DNA of 59,671 nt from the IMG/VR virus record IMGVR_UViG_3300032332_000896, positions 1 through 59,671 of that record. One strand, given 5' to 3'. This stretch comes from a virus (taxonomy: Duplodnaviria; Caudoviricetes). The notes under the pieces were generated by a model that saw only the letters and a list, made by a program, of their open reading frames with translations, was not told the DNA's origin and did not search any database. The position numbers were made by a program, and so were the translations under genes. Of this stretch, positions 20,926 through 46,645 are shown in pieces. Position 1 is the first letter of the stretch. Every line of letters begins with the position of its first letter.

Positions 20926-21114
20926 CTATACCTTGTTGTTGTTCTTGCGGACGAGACGCCAGACAAAGACGCCGACCGCAAGCGCCGCGATGAGCGGCAC
21001 AAACTCGCGGAAGCCCGGAATCGGATTTCCGCCTGCGAGTGAATAGGCCGCGTAAGCAGCGGCACCCGTGCCAATAACGTCGAGAGCGTTATCCAGCGTG
21101 ACTTCGAACTTCAT
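20926..21114 (-). CDS. Small two-TM membrane protein (possible holin)
   Basis: Two hydrophobic segments, basic C-terminus, end of lysis cassette; GGAGGG RBS. Confidence 0.6.
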   Translation of the reverse strand: MKFEVTLDNALDVIGTGAAAYAAYSLAGGNPIPGFREFVPLIAALAVGVFVWRLVRKNNNKV

Positions 21115-21118
21115 GGGC

Positions 21119-21370
21119 TCAGCCCTCCTGACAGTATTGGCGCCATTTCACGGCAAAAGCCTCCGCATGCTGGCGCCATTCCAGCGGGGCTGTCTCGGGT
21201 ATGGGTTTGGGTTTGAAGAGCGCGCAGTCAGCTGCCTTCTGCTTCGCTATTTCCTCGTCGAGCAGGGCCATATACGAGATCGGCGAGCGAGGGGTCTCGT
21301 GCGCGCAACTCGTCAATAGTAGAACTGACAACATGAGCATCAGCGGCACGCTCAGCTTCAAGTATTTCAT
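21119..21370 (-). CDS. Putative o-spanin (Rz1-like lipoprotein)
   Basis: Signal peptide with lipobox LLTSC; overlaps i-spanin in another frame. Confidence 0.65.
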   Translation of the reverse strand: MKYLKLSVPLMLMLSVLLLTSCAHETPRSPISYMALLDEEIAKQKAADCALFKPKPIPETAPLEWRQHAEAFAVKWRQYCQEG

Positions 21371-21593
21371 CGGTTCGTATTTCCTCCAGCTCCACACGAT
21401 GCTCGGCAATGCGGGCCTGCTCTCGTGCCTGTTCAATTTTCTGACTCTGACGCTCTTTCTGACGCACGTTGTTGTCACGCCACGCGAGGTAAAGACCAAG
21501 AGTTGCGATTGTCGTTATACCAACTATAACTACTTGCGCCCATTTGTGTCGGGCGACGAAATCGAAGAACTTGAAAAGAGCGGCTGCAAACAT
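21228..21593 (-). CDS. Putative i-spanin (Rz-like)
   Basis: N-terminal TM then coiled coil; overlapping lipoprotein gene. Confidence 0.65.
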   Translation of the reverse strand: MFAAALFKFFDFVARHKWAQVVIVGITTIATLGLYLAWRDNNVRQKERQSQKIEQAREQARIAEHRVELEEIRTDEILEAERAADAHVVSSTIDELRARDPSLADLVYGPARRGNSEAEGS

Positions 21594-22182
21594 GGCGTCA
21601 CCTATCAAAATCTGCGCCGTCAGTAGATGCGATAGTCCGGCGAAAAAGAAAGGATGGTGCGAGCCGCACTATCGCAGGTGGTTAAAATACGATGATCCCC
21701 TCGGCGGAGGAACAGCGCGAGGAGCTGCCCCAGAATTTATTGAGGCGGCGCTTCGCACAAAAAACAAACGGGCTTGCGTGGTGTGGCCGTTTTCTCGGGA
21801 TGGATACGGGTACGCAAAAATAAAAGCTGGGCCAAAGCCGAGGTACGTTCACCGCATTATCTGCGAGCGTGTTCACGGGCCAGCGCCGTCGCCAGATCAC
21901 GAAGCCGCGCATCGGTGCGGCAAGGGTCACACTGGCTGCATCAGTCCTCATCATCTTCGCTGGGCGACAGCAGCTCAGAATCAGAGGGACCGGGCAAAAC
22001 ACGGGACCGAGCTTTTTGGAGAGCGTCACCCATCCGCGAAACTGACAAACGAGCAGGTCGTGGAAATTCGTCGCGCATGCGCGCGTGGCGACATCACGCA
22101 AAAAGAGCTGGCACTGAGATACGGTGTAGCCCAAGGCCAAATCTCGCGTATTTTTCGACGGTCTCGCCGCGCACGTTTTTAA
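21592..22182 (+). CDS. HNH homing endonuclease (antisense insertion in lysis cassette)
   Basis: C...C......GWC..HY.RW; C..W....GY; VHRI....HG....AAH.CG...CISP.HLRWAT..QN..D; AKLT..V..IR; C-terminal HTH. Confidence 0.85.
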   Translation: MASPIKICAVSRCDSPAKKKGWCEPHYRRWLKYDDPLGGGTARGAAPEFIEAALRTKNKRACVVWPFSRDGYGYAKIKAGPKPRYVHRIICERVHGPAPSPDHEAAHRCGKGHTGCISPHHLRWATAAQNQRDRAKHGTELFGERHPSAKLTNEQVVEIRRACARGDITQKELALRYGVAQGQISRIFRRSRRARF

Positions 22183-23393
22183 AAAAGGGCCTGCACAGCC
22201 GCCTTCTCAGCGCGCTTCCGTTTCCAGTCGCCATAGGTCTTGATGGTAAAGCCGACGATTGCAACGCCTGCCGCAACGAAGGCTATCAGCACCATGTTGC
22301 TGAGAACGGGGTCTCCCTGCAGAACCTGAGCGCCGCTTTGGACGGTCGATCCGAACATTCCGAGCGCGCCCAAACGAATGACGCTGATCCCCACTTGCTG
22401 AACGACATAGCCCTTCGCCCTATCGGACTCCTCCAGCGGCTTGAGCCCTGCGTTGGGGTCGATCTTGTACGGCACCTCAGACGGCTGAACCGTGTTCGGG
22501 CTCTTCGACTTGGTCCCGACCGGGAGCGAGATGGGGGTAGGGGCCGGGGCGGGCTTAGGCGCCGCCTTGGTGGCGACCGTCACCGCAGGCGGAGGCATCG
22601 GGGCGGCGGGATAGCGCGGGATTGGGGCTGGCGTGACCACTGGTGCGGGTTTCGGGGCCGGGGGCGGCGCAGCGTCCATAATCACGGTGACGCTCCCTGC
22701 GGGCTCTGTGAGGAGCATTGGCAGGGGGTGCTTGCGGGCCGTCTCCAGAACCTGACCAAATGGCGTGGTCTGGTCCCACAGGACGCGGTCGTGCCAGCGG
22801 TTGTTGGGCTCGTCCCAGAGCTTCTCGGATCGCAGGGAAATCGCGTCGTCCGCGCAGGCTTCCTCGAAGTCGAAACCGGAATACACGCACCCCTCAGCGT
22901 AATGCCGTCTCAGGAGGCCCCGGAGGGCTCTGGTATAGCGACATGGCTCGCCGCTGGGGCCACGCCAATGGTTGCCGTTGGCGTCCACCTCAGAGGTCGC
23001 CTTCGTCCACATCCCGAACGCTCGGGCGGCATCCTCGAAGCGGCGCTCGTTCGTGAGGCGCAGCACCGAGCTGGTGGCGAACTGGGCATCCCCGATATTG
23101 AACACGAGGGCCACGAGGGCATCGAACTGGTATTGCGTCAGCTCGACCGTGACGCGGCTATTCACAACCTGTTCGAAGGTGTGCAGCGCATGAGCAAGCA
23201 AGGGCTGCACGTGATCCGGCAGGATCGTCTGACCTTCGCGCACAGGCCGACCGTCTGGATAGCCCTCCGAAGGGGGCCAGAACGTGCAGCCATAGCCAAG
23301 CTCCCACCGACCGCCCTCGCACAGGCGAGCCGACAGGCGCGGCTTCCCTTCGAAGGTGGTGATGAGTCTGAGACCGTCTGGACCTGTCTTCAT
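22179..23393 (-). CDS. Endolysin: GH24 lysozyme, Pro-rich linker, C-terminal TM helices
   Basis: FEG..L.A.LC.GG.W.LGYG, LTQYQFDALV.LVFNIG, GL.RR..E. Confidence 0.9.
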   Translation of the reverse strand: MKTGPDGLRLITTFEGKPRLSARLCEGGRWELGYGCTFWPPSEGYPDGRPVREGQTILPDHVQPLLAHALHTFEQVVNSRVTVELTQYQFDALVALVFNIGDAQFATSSVLRLTNERRFEDAARAFGMWTKATSEVDANGNHWRGPSGEPCRYTRALRGLLRRHYAEGCVYSGFDFEEACADDAISLRSEKLWDEPNNRWHDRVLWDQTTPFGQVLETARKHPLPMLLTEPAGSVTVIMDAAPPPAPKPAPVVTPAPIPRYPAAPMPPPAVTVATKAAPKPAPAPTPISLPVGTKSKSPNTVQPSEVPYKIDPNAGLKPLEESDRAKGYVVQQVGISVIRLGALGMFGSTVQSGAQVLQGDPVLSNMVLIAFVAAGVAIVGFTIKTYGDWKRKRAEKAAVQALF

Positions 23394-24862
23394 TTCGGCT
23401 TGCCCTCATAAATGGGAAACAGGTCGCCACCGGGAATGCGTCCATCGACGCGGAGCAGCGCATTTTCGTCGAGTGAGAACTTCACTTCGATGGTTGCGAC
23501 GCCCTTTGGTGCGGGCTCGATTGGCACATGCATGTGACCGAGCCTGTTGTTCTGGTTGGCCCGGTGATCCTCACCCTCGTAGATGTGGATGGTGCAGATT
23601 TCCTGATCGTCCTCGCTGCTGGTAATCAGCACGGTGTTGTCCACGGGATAGGTTGAGCCCTTCGGGATGACGCGCGAGAATGCATTTCCAGACGCGCGAA
23701 TGCCGAACGAGAACGACGTGCGGTCGTCGAGATTGAAGCGCGCACGATTGTCGAGCACGGCAGCGTATGTGGCCGCGCCGATGGCGACCACCTCTTCAGG
23801 ATTGAGCGCGTTCTTACGCGGCTTCTTCCCGAAGAACTTCTCGACCGCCGTGGCGACCGCAGGCATGCGCGTCATGCCGCCGACAAGGATCACCTCGTCC
23901 ACATCATCGCGCGTGCGTCCTGCTGAGGTCAGCGCGCGCTGGCATGTCGCCAGCGTCTGCTCGATCAGGTCCGCTGTCATGTTCTCCAGCTGGTCCTTGG
24001 TCAGAACCTCGTTCATGTGATGGTGGCCGCGCTCGGACGTGTGAGCGAAGCGCACCGAGATATTGGTCTCGTTCTGGGAGGAGAGCGCAATCTTCGCCTG
24101 CTCTGCAGCGTCACGCACGCGCGGCAGCACATCTCCAGTGAGGTCTTCGGGATGGCTCTTGTTCCACTCCGTCCGCGCGTACTCGACGATGCGACTGTCG
24201 AAGTCGGCCCCGCCCAGATGGCGCGTGCCGTTGGTCTCGACAGTGGTGTGCTCGCCCTTGCCGACATCCATCAGCGCGATATCGAACGTACCTCCGCCGA
24301 AATCGTAGATCGCCAGTCGGGTAAATTTCTGGTGCAGAACGCCATACGCCATAGCAGCGGCGGTAGGCTCATGAAGAAGAACCACTTCCTTCAAGCCAGC
24401 AAGTTGGGCTGCGAGTTTTGTCGCTTGAGATGCGGCATCGCCAAAATTGGCCGGGATGGTGATGACAGCCCGGTCTGGACGCTCACCAAGACGAGCCTCT
24501 GCTGCGTCAAGCATTGCCGAAATGAGATAGCTCGACATTTCTGGCGCAGAGATCAGGCCATTCGGCCCACGGAACCAGATCATGCCGTCTTCGCCTTCGG
24601 CAAACTGGATGCCGTGGTCTTCGCCGTCGTGATAGCGCTCGCCCATGTAGCGCTTGGTGTTGAAGTAGCTGAAGGCCGAGTTCGAGCGTGACTGGGTCAG
24701 CGCTGAGCGTCCAACGAGGCGCTCTCCGTTTTCCTTGAAAGCAATGACGGATGGCATCACGCGCAGGTTTTCTGCAGTTGCGATGACAGATGCTTCGCGA
24801 CCATCGTGAAAAGCGACGCACGAGTTTGTCGTTCCAAGGTCAATCCCGACTGTCAGACTCAT
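23390..24862 (-). CDS. Hsp70/DnaK-family protein, divergent, lacking the alpha-helical lid
   Basis: GIDLGTTNS, AVITIPA, EPTAAA.AYG, YDFGGGTFD, HLGGADFD, VILVGGMTRMP, NPEEVVAIGAA, GVATIEVKF; 490 aa. Confidence 0.95.
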   Translation of the reverse strand: MSLTVGIDLGTTNSCVAFHDGREASVIATAENLRVMPSVIAFKENGERLVGRSALTQSRSNSAFSYFNTKRYMGERYHDGEDHGIQFAEGEDGMIWFRGPNGLISAPEMSSYLISAMLDAAEARLGERPDRAVITIPANFGDAASQATKLAAQLAGLKEVVLLHEPTAAAMAYGVLHQKFTRLAIYDFGGGTFDIALMDVGKGEHTTVETNGTRHLGGADFDSRIVEYARTEWNKSHPEDLTGDVLPRVRDAAEQAKIALSSQNETNISVRFAHTSERGHHHMNEVLTKDQLENMTADLIEQTLATCQRALTSAGRTRDDVDEVILVGGMTRMPAVATAVEKFFGKKPRKNALNPEEVVAIGAATYAAVLDNRARFNLDDRTSFSFGIRASGNAFSRVIPKGSTYPVDNTVLITSSEDDQEICTIHIYEGEDHRANQNNRLGHMHVPIEPAPKGVATIEVKFSLDENALLRVDGRIPGGDLFPIYEGKPK

Positions 24863-26094
24863 GCGACTTCTTTCTCTTTGATCTCTTCTTTGACTTCGGG
24901 CTCGTCCTCGTAATCATCGCCGTCATCGAAGAACATTTCGTCTTCGTTGCGGTCATCAGTCACGGGAATTTTCTTCTGGTTCTTCTCGGCCCGGCGCTTG
25001 TGCTGCGATGCCTGTCCACCCTTGCGAGCGCGCTGCTGCTCGGTCGTGAGGGGCTCTTCCTTGACGACGACAACGACCTTCTCCTCGACGAGGGGGTCTT
25101 TGGTTTCGGGCTTGTCTGCCGTGTCTGGCTTCTCTGCGGCATCACGCAGGGCCTTGGCCTTGGCGCGCGATGCTGCAACACGCGCCTCGCTCTCGGCGAT
25201 CTCCTCGTCCATGATTGCCGCTTCTTCCGCTTCCTGAGCGATGAGGCGGCGCACCATGCCGACGAAGTGGCGGTGCAGGTCGTAGTAAGCGCCGGGGCCA
25301 AAGGCGACGATTGCCTCCAGCAGGAGGGCGAAGAAGAGCAGGCCGAAGTCAGACCAGTCCTGCTCCGACGTTCCAGTGCGCTTGGCCGCAAACGAGAACA
25401 CAGCCCATGTCGATGGTGTCTCGGCTTCCTTGACCTTGGCATCCGTGCGCGCTGTCTCGGTTGTATTTTCTGCCGCAGCGATCTGCGCGTCCAAGTCCTT
25501 CTGGCGAGCTTCGCTGTCAACGATGTACTGCGCGATATTCTTCTCGTACTGGCTGACATCGTCGTTTTTGGAGTTGCCGTCGTCGAGCACAAGGTCCATC
25601 GAGCGGCGCGCAGCTGCGATACGCTCTTTCGTGTTCTCGCGATCCGCTGCTTTCTCTTTTGTCAGGCGCTCAATCTTGCTTGCCTGACTATCGACAGCGA
25701 CACCCTCGACTTGGCCAATGATGCCTGCAGCGCGCTCTTTGCTTGCGTGACCGGCAGCGAAGAACGACACAGCCGAGAAGGCGCATGCGATAACCGTGCC
25801 CCACCACAGCAGGCGCCACGACGTGCGGGCAAGGCCGATACCCTTCTTCCCGCGCATGGCCTGCAGCATCACTGCAGCCCAGATGGCGAGCGTCCGTAGG
25901 CCAATGCCAAACAGCACGAACACGGGAACAAGCCACCACTGGTCGGCGTGTGACCCGAAGAAAATCGCATCGAGAATGTAGACAACAAGAATGCACAGCC
26001 CGAGCGCGACCATCACACCCTTGTCGGCGGTGCGAATGAAAGTAGTCGCGGTCACGCTATCAAGGCGTGTTCCGACAGCTTTGAAAATGTTCAT
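24859..26094 (-). CDS. Four-TM membrane protein with central coiled coil and charged tail (DUF4407-like architecture)
   Basis: Three N-terminal hydrophobic segments, long coiled region, fourth TM, E/K-rich tail; ATGA-coupled on both sides. Confidence 0.75.
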   Translation of the reverse strand: MNIFKAVGTRLDSVTATTFIRTADKGVMVALGLCILVVYILDAIFFGSHADQWWLVPVFVLFGIGLRTLAIWAAVMLQAMRGKKGIGLARTSWRLLWWGTVIACAFSAVSFFAAGHASKERAAGIIGQVEGVAVDSQASKIERLTKEKAADRENTKERIAAARRSMDLVLDDGNSKNDDVSQYEKNIAQYIVDSEARQKDLDAQIAAAENTTETARTDAKVKEAETPSTWAVFSFAAKRTGTSEQDWSDFGLLFFALLLEAIVAFGPGAYYDLHRHFVGMVRRLIAQEAEEAAIMDEEIAESEARVAASRAKAKALRDAAEKPDTADKPETKDPLVEEKVVVVVKEEPLTTEQQRARKGGQASQHKRRAEKNQKKIPVTDDRNEDEMFFDDGDDYEDEPEVKEEIKEKEVA

Positions 26095-26489
26095 GGGATA
26101 TGTACTCCGAAGGCTCGCAGCAGCAGATAAGCGGCGACGGCAACAGCAGCTCCAACCGTAGTAGCGACAGAGCCCATGAAGACTCTGCTGCCCCCACCAC
26201 CGGGAACTGGGTTGCTGTTTGCCACAGCTGTTGCAAGAGCTTCGAGGCGCTGCGTAAGCCCCTCCATCCGCGTCTCAATAGCGCTCACGGATTGCCGAAC
26301 AGTCTCGGATAAATGCTCTTCGACCTTATCAATGCGGTTTGTGATTTCATGGCGCTGTTGTGTGTTTTGCGCCATCAACTCCTTGTATGTGACCCGCTCG
26401 TTGATCTGGGCAGAAACCCCGCCAACATCCCGCGCAAGATCGGCTACAGCCGCAAAGTAGTTAGGCCCCTGCCCCATCATGTCCGACAT
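26091..26489 (-). CDS. Coiled-coil protein with C-terminal TM (holin/hemolysin-like position)
   Basis: Heptad region then GSVATTVGAAVAVAAYLLL. Confidence 0.6.
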   Translation of the reverse strand: MSDMMGQGPNYFAAVADLARDVGGVSAQINERVTYKELMAQNTQQRHEITNRIDKVEEHLSETVRQSVSAIETRMEGLTQRLEALATAVANSNPVPGGGGSRVFMGSVATTVGAAVAVAAYLLLRAFGVHIP

Positions 26490-26893
26490 TACTTCCTCAA
26501 CTCAAGCAGAATGGCAGAAATCGCCTCATGGCGATCCGTCTCAGCCCGGCCCATTTCGTATTTGTCGTCGAGCAGTTTTTGCGTGAGTGAATCATATTCG
26601 CGAAGCAGTCTGTTTTTGCCATCGCTGATTGTTTCGTCTTCAGCGAGAAGGGCCGCGAGTTCTTCCGATACCGCGACTGGCGCGGGCTCTGGAACGACAG
26701 GCGCAAACGCGCCAATGCCAACGAGATATTCCACGAGACTATCGACATCCTCGCGCGCGCCGCCGTGCTCGCGCCCATGAGGGTCCGTTGCGGAGACCTG
26801 ATAGAGGCGACCGATCTTCTGGATGTCCGCGCGGGGCCAGCCCGCATTGACCATCCTGATGGAAAGCTCTGCGCAGATATTATCTGTCATCAC
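26489..26893 (-). CDS. Hypothetical protein
   Basis: AGGAG RBS; TAATG coupling. Confidence 0.6.
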   Translation of the reverse strand: MMTDNICAELSIRMVNAGWPRADIQKIGRLYQVSATDPHGREHGGAREDVDSLVEYLVGIGAFAPVVPEPAPVAVSEELAALLAEDETISDGKNRLLREYDSLTQKLLDDKYEMGRAETDRHEAISAILLELRK

Positions 26894-26899
26894 GGGCTC

Positions 26900-27313
26900 C
26901 TATGCTTTCTCTGCGGCCATGCTGATGTTGGCTGTGCTCAGCACAACCAAATCCGAAGCGCGTCGAATTTGGACGAACAGGACCGGGAACACGGCGCCGG
27001 TCGGCCCCGACTTTGTGACTGACCACGCCCGTGTCGTGTTGAGCGGTAGCCACGTCGCCTCTGTGCCGGATGTCAGCGCGTCGCCGCTGTTCGTCACATA
27101 CGCTTCGTAAGCCGCCCCCGCAGCACCAGTCGGGTTGATCCAGTTTTGAAACGTGGCGGTTCCAAAACCCGATGTAAATGTCTGCACCAGACCGGTGTTA
27201 GTGAGGGTGTAGGTTGCCGTCGCCGAGACGCCCGAGCGAATGTCCGTAATGGACGTATCGTTGATGAGTACGCGCGGCCCGCCACCTATTACCGCAGCTA
27301 GAAGAAGGCTCAT
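26900..27313 (-). CDS. Tail-fibre-associated beta-rich protein
   Basis: T/S/G-rich; ATGA-coupled to tail fibre. Confidence 0.6.
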   Translation of the reverse strand: MSLLLAAVIGGGPRVLINDTSITDIRSGVSATATYTLTNTGLVQTFTSGFGTATFQNWINPTGAAGAAYEAYVTNSGDALTSGTEATWLPLNTTRAWSVTKSGPTGAVFPVLFVQIRRASDLVVLSTANISMAAEKA

Positions 27314-28293
27314 GAGAAGCCCCCTGACAAAACAACAACTGAAGCTGTTCGCCAGTAAGCCGTTCCGGTCTGGTCAATCGCCAGCGTGGCGGTCGCGGAG
27401 TTTGTGCCGTTGACATACATCGTCACGCTGGCCCCGCGTGTGAATGTGCGCGCCGCGCCGTTGCTGTCGAATACTGTGATGTCTCCTGCAGTGAAGATGG
27501 CGTTGTCAAGCGTGATGCCGCCGCTGCACAGCACGGATGCGTTCGCGCTGTTTGCTGCTGTGATTGAACCTGTCGTCTCCGAGCTGACTTTGACCCGGAT
27601 CGACTGCGCTGCAGACCATGTCGCTGCGGTGCTCGTGACAGCAGTATTTGCGTTATAGGCTTGGACGTTCGTGCCAATCGTGAGGTTGGTTGCAGTCTTG
27701 AAAGCCGCCTCGTTCGCCGTGGCAAGGATCGTCTCGCCCATCGCGCCGATGTCGATTGTCGAGAACGTGTCGACGCCCGTGCCCTTGATGATCTTGCCGC
27801 TGGCGATTGTGAGCGCAGCAAGGGCCGTCAGCGTTGCGTCGAGCGGCTGTAGCGACGCTGTTGATGTGGCGGGATCGCCAACAATCTGGAAGCGCGTTCC
27901 ATCATAGGCGAGCCAGTAGAACGTGCCTGAGACGATGTCTCCCGACGCAACCGCCGTCGTTCCGTTCTTGGTGATGGCCGTGGCCGCGAGACCGTCAACC
28001 GCCACCGTGGATGCGCCAGAGCAGGTGTGGTTCGCCTTGAGCAGGACAAGGCGCGGAGCGGTGAGTGAGGTCCACGCACCGACACCATCATTTGTGATGG
28101 TATAGGCATTGGACGCGCCGCCATACGTGACACCGCCGCCGATGGTGTTCGTGTATGCCCTGATCGCCGACATCATCGCGCGCGCAGAGTTGTTCACGGT
28201 CGGCCCGAGCTGACCTTCGGCCCAGTTGATGTTTGCGTCAGCCGTGCCGTTACTGCCAGCTGTGAGAGACCAGTCCTGCGGGCCTTGAGCCAT
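27310..28293 (-). CDS. Tail fibre/adaptor protein
   Basis: WS.TA.SN.TAD.NINWAEGQ....VNNSARAMM N-terminus typical of alphaproteobacterial podophage fibres; QPLDATLTALA repeat. Confidence 0.75.
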   Translation of the reverse strand: MAQGPQDWSLTAGSNGTADANINWAEGQLGPTVNNSARAMMSAIRAYTNTIGGGVTYGGASNAYTITNDGVGAWTSLTAPRLVLLKANHTCSGASTVAVDGLAATAITKNGTTAVASGDIVSGTFYWLAYDGTRFQIVGDPATSTASLQPLDATLTALAALTIASGKIIKGTGVDTFSTIDIGAMGETILATANEAAFKTATNLTIGTNVQAYNANTAVTSTAATWSAAQSIRVKVSSETTGSITAANSANASVLCSGGITLDNAIFTAGDITVFDSNGAARTFTRGASVTMYVNGTNSATATLAIDQTGTAYWRTASVVVLSGGFS

Positions 28294-43845: not shown

Positions 43846-44247
43846 TCAGGTGAACTCGGTGACGCGAGCAAAGCCGTTGGCGACTGCCCAGATGCCGCTG
43901 ATAATTCCGGTGTACCCGAACGGAATTGCAAAGAACCCGTCAGCAAGAATTTTTGTCGTGCAGTTGGTGGCGCTTACCGTGCCAGCGCCGAGCAGCAGAT
44001 AGAGAACCGATGTCGAATCGTTCCACACCGTCGCGCCATACCGGGCGGCGTTAGAAGCGAGCACCGTTCCTGCAGATGCAGACGAGGCAACCGAGCTTGC
44101 CGTGCCGGTGTTGACTGCGGTGTCACCCAGAGGGTTTCCGCCGCCGCCGCCTACAAGGTCAGCCGACGTGACGATGCGAATGGACGAGCCTTCCTTGACG
44201 AATAGAAGGACGTTCTGGGGCGTCTGCCCCTCGTTGAATGAAGGCAT
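43846..44247 (-). CDS. Virion structural protein
   Basis: LASNAARYGATVWNDS..LYL..G ... YTG.ISGIW..ANG.ARVTE. Confidence 0.65.
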   Translation of the reverse strand: MPSFNEGQTPQNVLLFVKEGSSIRIVTSADLVGGGGGNPLGDTAVNTGTASSVASSASAGTVLASNAARYGATVWNDSTSVLYLLLGAGTVSATNCTTKILADGFFAIPFGYTGIISGIWAVANGFARVTEFT

Positions 44248-44267
44248 GTCTTATCCCCTGAAAAGGT

Positions 44268-44296
44268 TCGGCCCCGCAGCTGCCTGCGGGGCCGAG
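44268..44296 (-). terminator. Strong hairpin after capsid operon
   Basis: TCGGCCCCGCAG-CTGC-CTGCGGGGCCGA followed by TTTT on minus strand. Confidence 0.7.
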
Positions 44297-44320
44297 AGGC
44301 CACTCAAATGTAAATCTGTG

Positions 44321-45121
44321 TCAGGCCGCTTGCGAGCCGTTGTCGACCTTGATCGCCCCGGTCTGCAGCATCTTCCTGAACGAAAGATCGTGCGCCACGC
44401 GGCCATCGTAGTGGATCAGCTCGACAGCTGTGTCGATGTACCGGGGCACGCCGAGCACGTCGCACTTGATCGAGAAGTCATAGTCCTCGCCGACATCGAC
44501 CATAGCGTCTTCGATGCCGAGTGCGGCAGCGCGCTTGGCTTCTGGCCCGTTCTCGGGAGCCGCCGCCAGTCCGTAGCCGAAATAGGTGGCGCAGAACGGC
44601 ATCGCAGCATCCGGCAGCTTCGGGTAGATGAAGCGGCGGACGAGGCCGCTGTCGTGCAGCTCTTCGTTGTTCAGCATCCCCTCAAACACGCTTCGATGTA
44701 TCCACATGAAGCAGGATGGGATGAATGTGTTGCTGGCCAAGCCGCGCTCATCGACTTCGAGGTTATGGTCGAGCGCTGCGTTGATCTCTGCGGGGGCGTT
44801 TGTGTTCGGGGCGCGCTTCTGCGCGACGCCCGCGACGATCTTCTCGCCGTGACTGACCATGCGAACAGCGTCTTCCGGCTTGAACGCGATGTCGTCGTCA
44901 ATGAAGAGGATGCCGTCGAAGTCCACCCCATCCGGCTGCGGCGACAGCATGTGCGCGCAGAGGACGTTTCTGACGCGGGGAAGAACCGGATTTCCCGGCG
45001 CGACCCAGCGCTCAAAACGAATGCCGGTCGATGCTGGCGTCGCCTGTGTTCTGGCCACCGACTCCGCGTGAGCGTAGTGGAGGTAGCCCGTGTAGCACGG
45101 CGTCGCCAGCATGACCTTCAT
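44321..45121 (-). CDS. GT-A fold glycosyltransferase-like protein
   Basis: MLATPCY, RVRN, ILFIDDDI (DxD), FMWIHRSVFE, GEDYDF, YID....H. Confidence 0.75.
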   Translation of the reverse strand: MKVMLATPCYTGYLHYAHAESVARTQATPASTGIRFERWVAPGNPVLPRVRNVLCAHMLSPQPDGVDFDGILFIDDDIAFKPEDAVRMVSHGEKIVAGVAQKRAPNTNAPAEINAALDHNLEVDERGLASNTFIPSCFMWIHRSVFEGMLNNEELHDSGLVRRFIYPKLPDAAMPFCATYFGYGLAAAPENGPEAKRAAALGIEDAMVDVGEDYDFSIKCDVLGVPRYIDTAVELIHYDGRVAHDLSFRKMLQTGAIKVDNGSQAA

Positions 45122-45130
45122 TCAGTCAGT

Positions 45131-45535
45131 CTATTCCCAGATCACGTAGGTGACAACGACATCGGCGGCGCCGGTCGTCGCTGCCGTGCCGGTCTGGGTA
45201 TATTTCACGAAGACATCGAGAGAGGTCGTCGTGCTGAGGATACCGGGACCGTTGACAGTCGTGGTCGCAACCGATCCTTCGGTCACGTCAGCCGCAGCAA
45301 CGAGGTTATCGCTGGTGGGGTTGTTCGTGCCGACAGTCAGGACGTTCGTGGTCGCCGCGTTGAACGCCGTCTTGATACGAACGACAGTGTTCATCACGAA
45401 GGCGTTCGCCGGGAGGCCAAACGCGAAGGCGACAGTCGATCCACCAGCGATGTCAGCGTCGGAGTAGGTGACGGACTTCGTCAGAAAGTGAACCTGACGC
45501 TCGTGATAATAACGAGCAATTTTGTTACTGGCCAT
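45131..45535 (-). CDS. Capsid decoration/minor capsid protein
   Basis: LPANA.V.....I.TAFNA.T...L.VG ... T.G.A..VVTY; directly after MCP. Confidence 0.7.
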   Translation of the reverse strand: MASNKIARYYHERQVHFLTKSVTYSDADIAGGSTVAFAFGLPANAFVMNTVVRIKTAFNAATTNVLTVGTNNPTSDNLVAAADVTEGSVATTTVNGPGILSTTTSLDVFVKYTQTGTAATTGAADVVVTYVIWE

Positions 45536-45550
45536 GATCCATTTCTCCTA

Positions 45551-46645
45551 TCAGGCCGCGTCAGCGGCGTAGGACGAGATCACGATGGTCGCGAAGTCCT
45601 TCGAGTTGAAGACGGACTTCTTGACCCCGTAGAGGCACAGGGCGTTCTGCCCGTACTCACGGTCGTAATCGAACGTCTGTTCACGGATACGCCACTCTTC
45701 GGGGCCGTAGCCCTGTCCGAATGCCATGATGAGCGACTGCGCGCCGCAGAAGATCGCGCGGCGAACCGTCGTGATGGCCGCGCCAGCGGCAGTGACGCCG
45801 TAGGGAACGCGGTTGGAGACCATGATGACCGTCTCGTTGTAGATACCGAGACCGCCCTTCCAGATCATCGACTCGTCGCCCTTGCCGCCCTGCAGCAGCG
45901 CCTTCTGCAAGTCCATCCAGTTGTTCGTGCTGGTGGACGTGCGCAGAGACGTGACCTGCGTGGGGTGAACGAAGCAAACGTACTTCGCGCCGCCCGGAAG
46001 GCCCTTGATCGGACGGATCGGGACAAGGCCGGTAGAGCCGCCCGTTTCCGCGAGTTCGCGAGCACGGTCGATCTGCTGCAGCGTCATCTCGTCGCCCGTT
46101 GAGTCGAGGTCGGAGTCCTGCGTTGCGCCAACTTCGGTCCAAATCTGACGACCAGTGGTCGGAGCAGTGATGGTGTTGAAGCCGTTGTACTGGCCGTTGG
46201 CGGCGAGCGAGTTCGCCGGGGTGTAGCCCGCGAGATGGTACATCGCGACCTGATCCAGACGGGCTGCGTGCCAGTCGGCGAGGGCGTCGTTGCCTTCCTT
46301 TGCGATGTCGAAGGGAACGCGCTGCTGGGCCATCGTGGTGCGGTTACGATAGGCGTTGGACAGCTCGCCGAGAGTGACATCATCCGTATAGGTGGTGATG
46401 CTTTCCTCGTTACCTTCTTGGGTCATGAGTTCGGTGACGCCGTCCGAGTTGAACTGCATGCGCAGCGCGACGCGAACGCGATCTCCCGCACCCTTCTGGG
46501 TTTCGGGAGCGAGAGTGATGAGGGCTGACCCGGAGTCTTTAATCATCGGGTAGATAACGGTCGCTTTCAGCGCTTCGCGCGCGAGCCGTTTCGACCAGAT
46601 TTTGACGACTTCGTTGTCGCCCACAGCATATGACTTGGTTGCCAT
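45551..46645 (-). CDS. Major capsid protein (N4-gp56/DUF4043 type)
   Basis: VK.WS..L.RE, KGAGDRV...L, EGNEE, YV.FVHP.Q...LR, G.LGIYN, RAIFCGAQ, G.KK..FN..DF. Confidence 0.9.
   Translation of the reverse strand: MATKSYAVGDNEVVKIWSKRLAREALKATVIYPMIKDSGSALITLAPETQKGAGDRVRVALRMQFNSDGVTELMTQEGNEESITTYTDDVTLGELSNAYRNRTTMAQQRVPFDIAKEGNDALADWHAARLDQVAMYHLAGYTPANSLAANGQYNGFNTITAPTTGRQIWTEVGATQDSDLDSTGDEMTLQQIDRARELAETGGSTGLVPIRPIKGLPGGAKYVCFVHPTQVTSLRTSTSTNNWMDLQKALLQGGKGDESMIWKGGLGIYNETVIMVSNRVPYGVTAAGAAITTVRRAIFCGAQSLIMAFGQGYGPEEWRIREQTFDYDREYGQNALCLYGVKKSVFNSKDFATIVISSYAADAA

Follow-up and report, generated by a model that had tools for sequence, protein, structure and literature searches.

A lidless phage Hsp70 encoded between a four-helix membrane protein and a membrane-tailed lysozyme

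Virus record IMGVR_UViG_3300032332_000896 of IMG/VR (Duplodnaviria; Caudoviricetes) encodes an Hsp70 that ends before the helical lid. The record is taken here in its entirety (59,671 base pairs, bp; "the window"). It has a 123-bp exact direct terminal repeat and is complete. The Hsp70 gene lies between a gene for a 411-amino-acid (aa) protein with four transmembrane (TM) segments, called the 4-TM protein below, and a gene for a GH24 lysozyme with a C-terminal membrane anchor. This 4-TM-Hsp70-lysozyme arrangement persists over about eight phage lineages, and the recurrence of the trio in distant uncultured phages points to an undescribed chaperone-assisted lysis step. An earlier, model-made reading of the letters (the original prediction) had singled the locus out as a candidate chaperone-controlled lysis module. 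The features at the locus, and the portal gene of the late block to which it belongs, are as follows.

26489-26893, minus strand: 134-aa protein, first gene of the overlapping chain
26091-26489, minus strand: 132-aa tail-anchored protein, with a coiled-coil-like N-terminal part and one C-terminal hydrophobic helix (102-132)
24859-26094, minus strand: 411-aa 4-TM protein, from open reading frame (ORF) and hydropathy
23390-24862, minus strand: 490-aa lidless Hsp70, from the PF00012 match
22179-23393, minus strand: 404-aa GH24 lysozyme, from the Pfam Phage_lysozyme match
21544-22182, plus strand: HNH homing-endonuclease gene (PF13392, 1.5e-08; phrog_59, 1.1e-20)
21228-21608, minus strand: i-spanin-like protein of up to 126 aa, with a TM helix near the N-terminus (23-44) and then a charged helical part
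21119-21370, minus strand: o-spanin-like lipoprotein of 83 aa, with a signal peptide ending in LLTSC
20926-21114, minus strand: 62-aa membrane protein, with a Gly/Ala-rich weak helix, a strong helix (31-57) and a basic end
Minus-strand late block: portal gene (phrog_156, 3.4e-84)

The ORFs of 132, 411, 490 and 404 aa are chained as originally described, the stop of each overlapping the start of the next by 4 nucleotides (nt; junction letters ..GCATGAGT..). The 134-aa gene overlaps the 132-aa gene by 1 nt.

The Hsp70 protein and its family

The Pfam HSP70 profile (PF00012) covers residues 5-473 of the Hsp70, equivalent to profile positions 2-482 of 599 (E value 3.9e-129), and the match ends where the helical lid would start. 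The motifs GIDLGTTNS, EPTAAA, DFGGGTFD, LVGGMTRMP and RFNLDDR are all found in the translation. The beta-sandwich substrate domain is present, and the protein aligns to residues 22-503 of mortalin. The 490-aa Hsp70 of the original prediction, with its quoted ATPase motifs and substrate-binding beta domain, is thus borne out. The same holds for the missing lid and the altered linker: RFNLDDR aligns to DVLLLDV of two full-length alphaproteobacterial DnaKs, and the window's protein ends 4 residues past its last beta strand (FPIYEG), whereas the aligned DnaKs run ~140 residues further.

These losses extend to a whole clade of 44 lidless sequences, described below, in none of which the lid is present. 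A VLLLD-type linker (FNLDD in the window) is seen in 0 of the 44 against 15 of 15 full-length sequences. The positions K70, E165, D187 and T192, which we take to be catalytic together with D8 and D194, are invariant in all 59 aligned sequences, and the last two are conserved to 90% or more. At the site of DnaK R167 the window's protein has Val; Arg occupies it in 1 of 44 lidless sequences and in all 15 full-length ones, and N170 of DnaK is likewise retained in 6 of 44 against 15 of 15. In DnaK, R167 and the linker residue L391 are contacted by the HPD motif of DnaJ (Mayer review, PMC8215388).

Partner genes for such contacts were looked for in six frames over the full record at E ≤ 1. Neither a J-domain (PF00226) nor a GrpE (PF01025) was found, in agreement with the earlier remark that no such gene was visible; among well-known genomes used as positive controls, the search recovered the J-domain in 12 of 14 and GrpE in 14 of 14. 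Of the NCBIfam models, those for DnaK give the highest scores, yet these stay below their cut-offs (NF001413, 452.8 against 648; TIGR02350, 441.6 against 822.55), as do those for HscA (NF003520, 356.6 against 620; TIGR01991, 347.9 against 708.55). No Fe-S assembly genes are seen near the Hsp70 among the window's ORFs and Pfam matches, and no PADLOC defence family matches the Hsp70, the 4-TM protein or the lysozyme.

Full-length relatives number 11 in a large protein collection; they are 489-500 aa long, with identities of 44-88%, and several of them come from contigs of 59.6-64.4 kb. The remaining matches there are DnaK-like, at 40-44% identity. All 12 short sequences, the window's included, stop just past the last beta strand. 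In a representative library, 35 of the best 150 matches are 475-512 aa long. A maximum-likelihood tree of 70 sequences, from a quick search without bootstraps and with some long branches, was built from the 12 family members, the 35 short representatives, 15 full-length Hsp70s, six full-length viral DnaKs from IMG/VR, Salmonella DnaK, and Acinetobacter HscA as outgroup. In this tree the 44 lidless sequences form a single clade with a Shimodaira-Hasegawa-like approximate likelihood ratio (SH-aLRT) of 100 and a stem of 0.69 substitutions per site, apart from Salmonella DnaK, the alphaproteobacterial DnaKs and the six viral DnaKs. Two short representatives, P0171 and P0235, nest among the DnaKs and are probably fragments, and one further short sequence is sister to the lidless clade. 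At least 32 clusters (50% identity) of lidless Hsp70s of ~480-510 aa join the window protein's clade (P0134-P0257); many of their members end in a similar I/L-Y/F-E/D-G strand, and 7 are placed on viral contigs.

The ratio of nonsynonymous to synonymous substitution rates (dN/dS) between the window's Hsp70 and relatives of ~75% identity is 0.13 (locus L077) and 0.15 (L076), at dS values of 1.1-1.3, which are near saturation. The frame is intact, at 489-501 aa, in the nine loci that hold the whole gene. A recent copy of a host dnaK under relaxed selection, a possibility raised with the original prediction, is ruled out by an identity to DnaKs of at most 44%, the separate clade in the tree and a dN/dS of 0.13-0.15. 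Because of the depth of the clade, the dN/dS values, the kept ATPase sites and the lost R167 and linker, the family reads as old and selected, probably ATPase-active and probably uncoupled from J-proteins.

Flanking genes, their linkage and the surrounding cassette

Conservation of the linkage was followed with DNA patterns that cover 14 to 25 of the 44 clade members. A pattern on the linker region of the Hsp70 family leads to four metagenome loci, in each of which the lysozyme gene directly follows the Hsp70 gene, and L077, from a 61,680-bp contig, repeats the whole arrangement, tail fibre through small membrane protein. A second pattern, on a clade-specific motif, matches 25 of the 44 lidless and 0 of 206 full-length sequences. 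In IMG/VR it hits at least 80 stretches; of the 80 listed, 7 encode a lidless Hsp70 (35-41% identity) and the other 73 are chance matches without Hsp70. A stricter Hsp70 pattern returned the same 7 loci from IMG/VR and matched 0 of 185,579 prokaryote genomes. The lysozyme gene lies directly downstream in all 7. Across the 12 loci, the window included, the Hsp70-lysozyme junction always overlaps, by 1-14 nt; the gene upstream of the Hsp70 is a 4-TM homologue in 9 of 9 loci with upstream DNA, and that junction overlaps by 1-4 nt in 8 of the 9. The synteny check suggested with the original prediction therefore comes out in favour of linkage to both neighbours wherever the Hsp70 is borne (9/9 and 12/12). 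The idea of a recent Hsp70 insertion confined to close kin was overturned by the seven distant IMG/VR loci, and a chimeric assembly, also raised at the outset, is ruled out by the recurrence of the same junctions on independent contigs.

A search of IMG/VR with the Hsp70 alone returned 54 loci, and the 47 that were read hold DnaKs and no lidless relative: 43 are complete (600-654 aa), three run off the contig end and one stops at 506 aa. The 411-aa protein alone found nothing in IMG/VR, and a first family-specific DNA pattern had no match there. A search of IMG/VR with the 4-TM family gave 18 loci at 35-37% identity; in 18 of 18 the lysozyme gene lies directly downstream of the 4-TM gene and there is no Hsp70. 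Because these related loci hold the pair without the chaperone, the pair of 4-TM protein and anchored lysozyme is older and wider than the Hsp70, which is an addition to it. The 4-TM protein of L056 has no relative in the 185,579 prokaryote genomes.

The 4-TM protein itself matches no family, holin families included, in Pfam, PHROGs, NCBIfam or PADLOC, and in the Atlas it falls only in unnamed viral or bacterial clusters. Its hydrophobic stretches are at 22-51, 52-80, 94-118 and 246-271, with a coiled-coil loop of ~130 aa between the third and fourth helices and a charged C-terminal tail of ~140 aa. Helices 2 and 3 are joined by a basic loop, with 4 Lys/Arg and no acidic residues, which the positive-inside rule puts in the cytoplasm; we infer from this that the coiled-coil loop is periplasmic and the tail cytoplasmic, a side that the Hsp70 would share with it.

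At its end the tail has a conserved basic stretch and then KKIPVTDDR.EDEMF; it is the best-conserved part of the 4-TM protein in the Hsp70-bearing phages. The 4-TM proteins evolve rapidly. Seven that bear the tail, although they are 23-30% identical overall and their membrane parts are of two very different kinds, have in common RKGGQ..QH..RA..N.KKIPVTDDR.EDEMF; a search with the tail alone added one protein. When the 411-aa protein is compared with L076 and L077 by tblastn, its tail alone matches (50-53%), while the flanking genes match at 55-75%; evidently, therefore, the tail remained beside the Hsp70 through an exchange of the membrane part. Lineages further away carry the basic stretch followed by AVKVPVSD, KVRIPMDD or KILIPPKV. 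The 4-TM proteins of the Hsp70-less relatives are shorter (333-357 aa in the 12 of 18 that were read) and end in GGRTT.RRRLIEDLRK..., without an IPV-type motif.

The lysozyme matches Pfam Phage_lysozyme (PF00959) over residues 14-135 with 85.1 bits against a cut-off of 22.3. Its catalytic domain (~1-165) is followed by an extra conserved region, a proline-rich linker (236-300, 32% proline), a weakly hydrophobic helix (~330-352), a strong TM helix (360-388) and a basic C-terminus, and there is no N-terminal signal. These features suggest a hairpin anchor that leaves the catalytic domain facing the cytoplasm. Hydropathy and the Pfam match agree with the four-TM protein and the membrane-tailed GH24 endolysin first described for the locus. 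Below threshold, the lysozyme matches SpmX (62 bits against 700) and the BaGTA endolysin BgtA (60 against 315). An antisense shadow ORF (21774-23411, plus strand) overlaps the lysozyme gene.

In LysAP, another GH24 enzyme, the catalytic triad is E15, D24 and T30 (PMC8879335). The catalytic Glu (of FEG) is kept in 29 of 29 aligned lysozymes. In all five members of the window's subclade the Asp column is occupied by Cys and the Thr column by Glu (residues 15-35), and six more distant Hsp70-linked lysozymes have Gln (four) or Thr (two) at the Thr column; the full Asp/Thr pattern is found in 18 of 18 Hsp70-less lysozymes. An insertion of 12-22 residues likewise separates the Hsp70-linked lysozymes (11/11) from the Hsp70-less ones (0/18). 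It may be a lineage marker only, because the two lysozyme subtypes are two lineages.

Downstream of the lysozyme gene the module extends past 22179 to about 20926, through the HNH gene, the spanin-like pair and the small membrane protein. The HNH gene is convergent with the lysozyme gene and separates it from the spanin-like genes. It is a recent insertion, because L075, a locus that is otherwise near-identical, lacks it and has the lysozyme gene directly next to the i-spanin-like gene. Between L075 and the window all 490 Hsp70 codons are identical, and the o-spanin-like and 62-aa proteins are 100% identical; the C-terminal part of the lysozyme differs (90.6% identity; 110 nucleotide differences), and the i-spanin-like protein is 81% identical. 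This divergence of the flanks looks like co-conversion during homing. L056 and L061 also carry HNH genes, at different joints of the cassette; the one in L061 is reversed and sits exactly between the 4-TM gene and the lysozyme gene.

Homologues of the i-spanin-like protein directly follow the lysozyme in L074, L075, L077 and L091. The window's own protein has a weak PHROG match to a holin (0.0091), and its counterparts in L091 and L132 have weak matches to Rz-like spanins (0.0065-0.0097). The o-spanin-like gene begins within the i-spanin-like gene in another frame, an overlapped arrangement; the window's o-spanin-like protein has no PHROG match, and its counterpart in L056 matches phrog_1275 (Rz-like spanin) at 2.7e-08. 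The architecture of a two-component spanin (TM helix, lipobox, overlapping genes) is therefore present, with weak or no matches to families of its own. The 62-aa protein, which has no PHROG match, is kept after the spanin-like genes in relatives (53-100% identity) and may be the actual small holin of the cassette. In relatives as well, the spanin-like pair and the small membrane protein follow the lysozyme.

At the upstream end, the 134-aa protein matches no family in Pfam, PHROGs, NCBIfam or PADLOC. It has a homologue of 61% identity in the Hsp70-bearing L077 (tblastn) and has a Pro-rich patch alone in common with its L056 counterpart (BLASTP). The 132-aa protein has a 55% identical homologue at the equivalent position in L077, and family searches gave weak coiled-coil-type matches only. 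Proteins of like shape occupy its position in L056-L073, L132 and L115; the one in L056, of 135 aa, has no BLASTP similarity to it. The 132-aa protein could be a holin or antiholin partner. Taken together, the genes around the Hsp70 identify the neighbourhood as a putative lysis cassette. In phage lambda the order is holin, endolysin, spanin, and the gene order here (membrane protein, (Hsp70), lysozyme, i-spanin-like, o-spanin-like) parallels it; the original placement of the Hsp70 in a candidate lysis module gains from the spanin-like pair and small membrane protein that follow the lysozyme. Because spanin-like genes are present, a two-membraned (Gram-negative-type) host is implied.

The window has ~60% G+C, and its genes lie mostly on the minus strand, which, besides the portal gene, carries those for virion proteins, tail-fibre-like proteins and the large terminase. 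The Hsp70 module is at the downstream end of this late/structural block, directly after the tail-fibre genes. Inside the block, a 666-aa ORF on the plus strand (44102-46102) is either a candidate gene or an antisense shadow ORF. No tRNA genes were found in the window, and an integrase is not among the early genes scanned (RecT, Gp157-like, DUF932, PcfJ-like, DUF2303). Among GenBank phages (INPHARED), window positions 22179-28293 have no blastn match and the 411-aa protein no tblastn match, and tblastn with the Hsp70 gives matches of at most 41% identity. The phage group seems to be virulent and known from metagenomes only.

Possible roles of the Hsp70 in lysis

It is quite probable that the job of the Hsp70 lies within the lysis cassette. 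The reading we prefer, at a probability of about 0.5, is control of lysis centred on the tail of the 4-TM protein, on which a dedicated, J-independent Hsp70 would be docked. The Hsp70 would work without J-protein or exchange factor. Its substrate groove would bind the KKIPVTDD-like peptide, basic and then hydrophobic, at the end of the cytoplasmic tail, and this binding would bring it to the inner face of the membrane. ATP-linked holding and releasing of the tail would govern the moment or the manner in which the 4-TM protein gives the tethered lysozyme access to the wall, and the Hsp70 would act as a cytoplasmic, energy-sensing regulator of the lysis step. Hsp70 grooves prefer a basic stretch with a short hydrophobic, proline-containing core, and we infer that the tail is a docking peptide or a client of the Hsp70.

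The pairing of Hsp70 and tail was also modelled as a complex, using tail residues 335-411, in three runs and with three controls. The score was 0.58 in the three runs, against 0.00 for the best control, and the verdict was weak support. Of 80 solved complexes 58 reached the pass mark, as did 2 of 110 mismatched pairs; at scores of 0.60 or below, only 7 of those 80 solved complexes passed, plus both passing mismatches. The runs agree in at least 40% of contacts, and the predicted local distance difference test (pLDDT) of the partner is 45-49. The original prediction is supported in part: its membrane-protein partnership fits the conserved cytoplasmic tail and draws weak support from the complex prediction, the roles that it named (timing lysis, folding or releasing the endolysin) are candidates, and, as a correction to it, the related pairs do without an Hsp70 in 18 of 18 loci.

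Several further points weigh against control through the tail. The complex prediction is weak and its interface was not output; its pass may reflect likeness to solved Hsp70-peptide complexes, and the groove may take many extended peptides, in which case a pass would not be specific proof. In L144 the tail ends in VVLVGDR and not in an IPV-type motif. The chaperone is dispensable for the basic mechanism, because the 18 related loci manage with the 4-TM protein and the lysozyme. Insertion near the lysozyme gene is evidently tolerated, given the HNH genes in the window, L056 and L061. The 12 loci amount to ~8 independent lineages, the pairs window/L075, L074/L076, L091/L149 and L115/L118 being near-duplicates or close kin. 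Finally, the holin-like label of the 411-aa protein would follow from position, and the charged tail also fits it; its size and its 130-aa coiled-coil loop are atypical for a holin, the protein being 2-5 times larger than typical holins, and the 62-aa protein with two helices that follows the spanin-like pair is just as good a candidate for the holin.

The nearest rival, which we consider unlikely, makes the endolysin the client: the Hsp70 would shield its C-terminal helices, or keep its catalytic domain unfolded for post-translational insertion or export, and the tail would be only a dock or uninvolved. In its favour, the stop of the Hsp70 gene overlaps the start of the lysozyme gene in all 12 loci. 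The lysozyme, which lacks an N-terminal signal and is anchored through a C-terminal part whose end is basic, has helices there that leave the ribosome only at termination, which calls for post-translational handling. LysAP of phage AP1 requires its C-terminal TM domain for localisation and lysis (PMC8879335), tail-anchored proteins of E. coli are aided by DnaK/DnaJ (PMC6794478), and Ms6 Gp1 is a chaperone-like phage protein that assists endolysin export (PMC6116114). The Hsp70-linked lysozymes also form their own subtype, with the 12-22-residue insertion (11/11 versus 0/18); that insertion, however, may merely mark one of two lysozyme lineages. The adjacency of lysozyme and 4-TM protein predates the Hsp70 (18/18), whose own adjacency to the lysozyme could follow from the site of its insertion, and a single substrate groove cannot hold the tail and the lysozyme simultaneously. 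The endolysin-client reading and control through the tail are not mutually exclusive.

A general accessory chaperone, serving virion proteins or host proteostasis, would make the position at the end of the late operon uninformative, and this we regard as distinctly improbable. The gene does lie at the end of the structural operon, just past the tail-fibre genes, in a region that the HNH genes show to tolerate insertions, and the full-length DnaK/DnaJ of large phages are seen as takeover or folding aids (PMC12619734). Yet the same two flanking genes, with their overlaps, are retained down to 35% identity, and the lost lid, linker and J-contact residues fit a narrow, dedicated task better. The upstream tail motif is conserved only where the Hsp70 is present, and the tail stayed with the Hsp70 through the exchange of the membrane part of the 4-TM protein.

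The original prediction had also considered a decoy for host DnaJ or GrpE. Such a competitor, or a meddler in the host DnaK network, is very hard to credit: phages do manipulate host DnaK, as with the J-domain protein of RB43 (PMC3486835), but the clade has lost the arginine named as J-domain contact (PMC8215388), which is kept in 1 of 44 lidless sequences, and the hydrophobic linker in all of them (0/44), and the fixed position in the lysis cassette would be left unexplained. Metagenomic short Hsp70s can be fragments, as 2 of the 35 short representatives that nest among DnaKs illustrate, but mis-assembly of the contig around a truncated or chimeric piece of host dnaK can practically be dismissed here, as can a pseudogene in decay, the record being complete with its terminal repeat, gene order and junctions being repeated on independent contigs, the frame being intact in nine whole-gene loci and 11 database relatives, dN/dS being 0.13-0.15, and identity to any DnaK not exceeding 44%.

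Control through the tail can be carried one step further, in a form that is tentative and rather doubtful. The lidless Hsp70s would then be a fourth prokaryotic class, borne by virulent phages, free of J-protein and exchange factor, recruited through a peptide by a protein in the holin position, and forming with it an ATP-gated lysis device. Such a device could serve as a clock, with the timing of lysis tied to the energy state of the cell; alternatively, it could provide a chaperone-driven route of C-terminally anchored endolysins to the cell wall. Under this reading the relatives without an Hsp70 may apply host DnaK to their simpler tail.

Comparison with known systems

The best solved relatives of the window's Hsp70 are mortalin and E. 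coli DnaK (E ~1e-105). It shares with DnaK the beta-sandwich substrate domain and the actin-like ATPase domain, in which no catalytic position is missing. Unlike DnaK, it has no lid or C-terminal tail, reads FNLDD for VLLLD and has Val for R167; no J-protein or GrpE partner gene accompanies it, its scores are below cut-off, and it belongs to a separate, deep clade.

HscA recognises the short, proline-containing LPPVK peptide of IscU, which the tail motifs KKIPVT and KILIPPKV resemble in look. HscA and HscC are few-client Hsp70s encoded beside their partners and independent of GrpE, and HscC is thought to act at the plasma membrane through the tail-anchored co-chaperones DjlB and DjlC (PMC8215388). 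Both retain the lid and use J-proteins, whereas the window's Hsp70 has no lid and its phage no J-domain gene; HscC is set apart here by its description. Prokaryotic Hsp70s are of three types, DnaK, HscA and HscC (Mayer review, PMC8215388). If the readings above are right, the family adds a large, phage-borne class beside these, and a natural test case for what an Hsp70 does without the lid, linker and J coupling of textbook allostery.

Viral Hsp70s have been described from several groups. In a 2026 survey the Caudoviricetes are represented by one entry, whose identity to bacterial DnaK exceeds 96%; the survey reports that closterovirus Hsp70h also has a shortened, variable substrate domain (PMC12978162); the DnaKs of "moraphages" are full-length and recent host acquisitions (PMC12619734). 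Within the available text of these papers, none of the closterovirus, giant-virus or large-phage Hsp70s is lidless, J-independent or in a lysis cassette. No account of a lidless phage Hsp70 or of a lysis-cassette Hsp70 was found in the literature outside subscription papers and supplements, in keeping with the original view that the system is undescribed.

The lysozyme has parallels too. LysAP of Acidovorax phage AP1, ORF39 of Enc34 and M4Lys share with it an N-terminal catalytic domain, the absence of a signal and a C-terminal anchor of one or two helices; the anchor is required for lysis in those endolysins, and LysAP is also GH24 (PMC8879335, PMC8943055). They differ in being ~227-260 aa long and lacking a long Pro-rich linker, and neither an Hsp70 nor a large 4-TM partner is described beside them in the text available. 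The route of C-terminally anchored endolysins to the wall is called unknown in the Enc34 paper (PMC8943055), and the phage Hsp70 would offer a handle on how such enzymes reach peptidoglycan. SpmX of Caulobacterales is a further likeness, being a GH24 muramidase with a charged, proline-rich middle and C-terminal TM segments (two in SpmX). It is said to derive from a phage lysin, and phage muramidases fused to other TM segments have been noted (bioRxiv 10.1101/418723). Unlike SpmX, a cellular polarity factor, the window's lysozyme lies in a phage cassette and scores 62 bits against 700 (NF051871); phage lysozymes of this build could be near the source from which SpmX was co-opted.

Gp1 of mycobacteriophage Ms6 is a precedent for a chaperone in this place: a chaperone-like protein coded beside the endolysin in a lysis cassette and aiding its holin-independent delivery (PMC6116114). 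It is, however, a small protein resembling secretion chaperones and is not an ATPase, unlike the Hsp70. The parts list of lysis cassettes would gain an ATP-using chaperone, and three small, self-contained genes with a predicted partner peptide make the hypotheses directly testable with cloned genes. What the locus presents is a known machine, stripped down, in a new place and with a new kind of partner.

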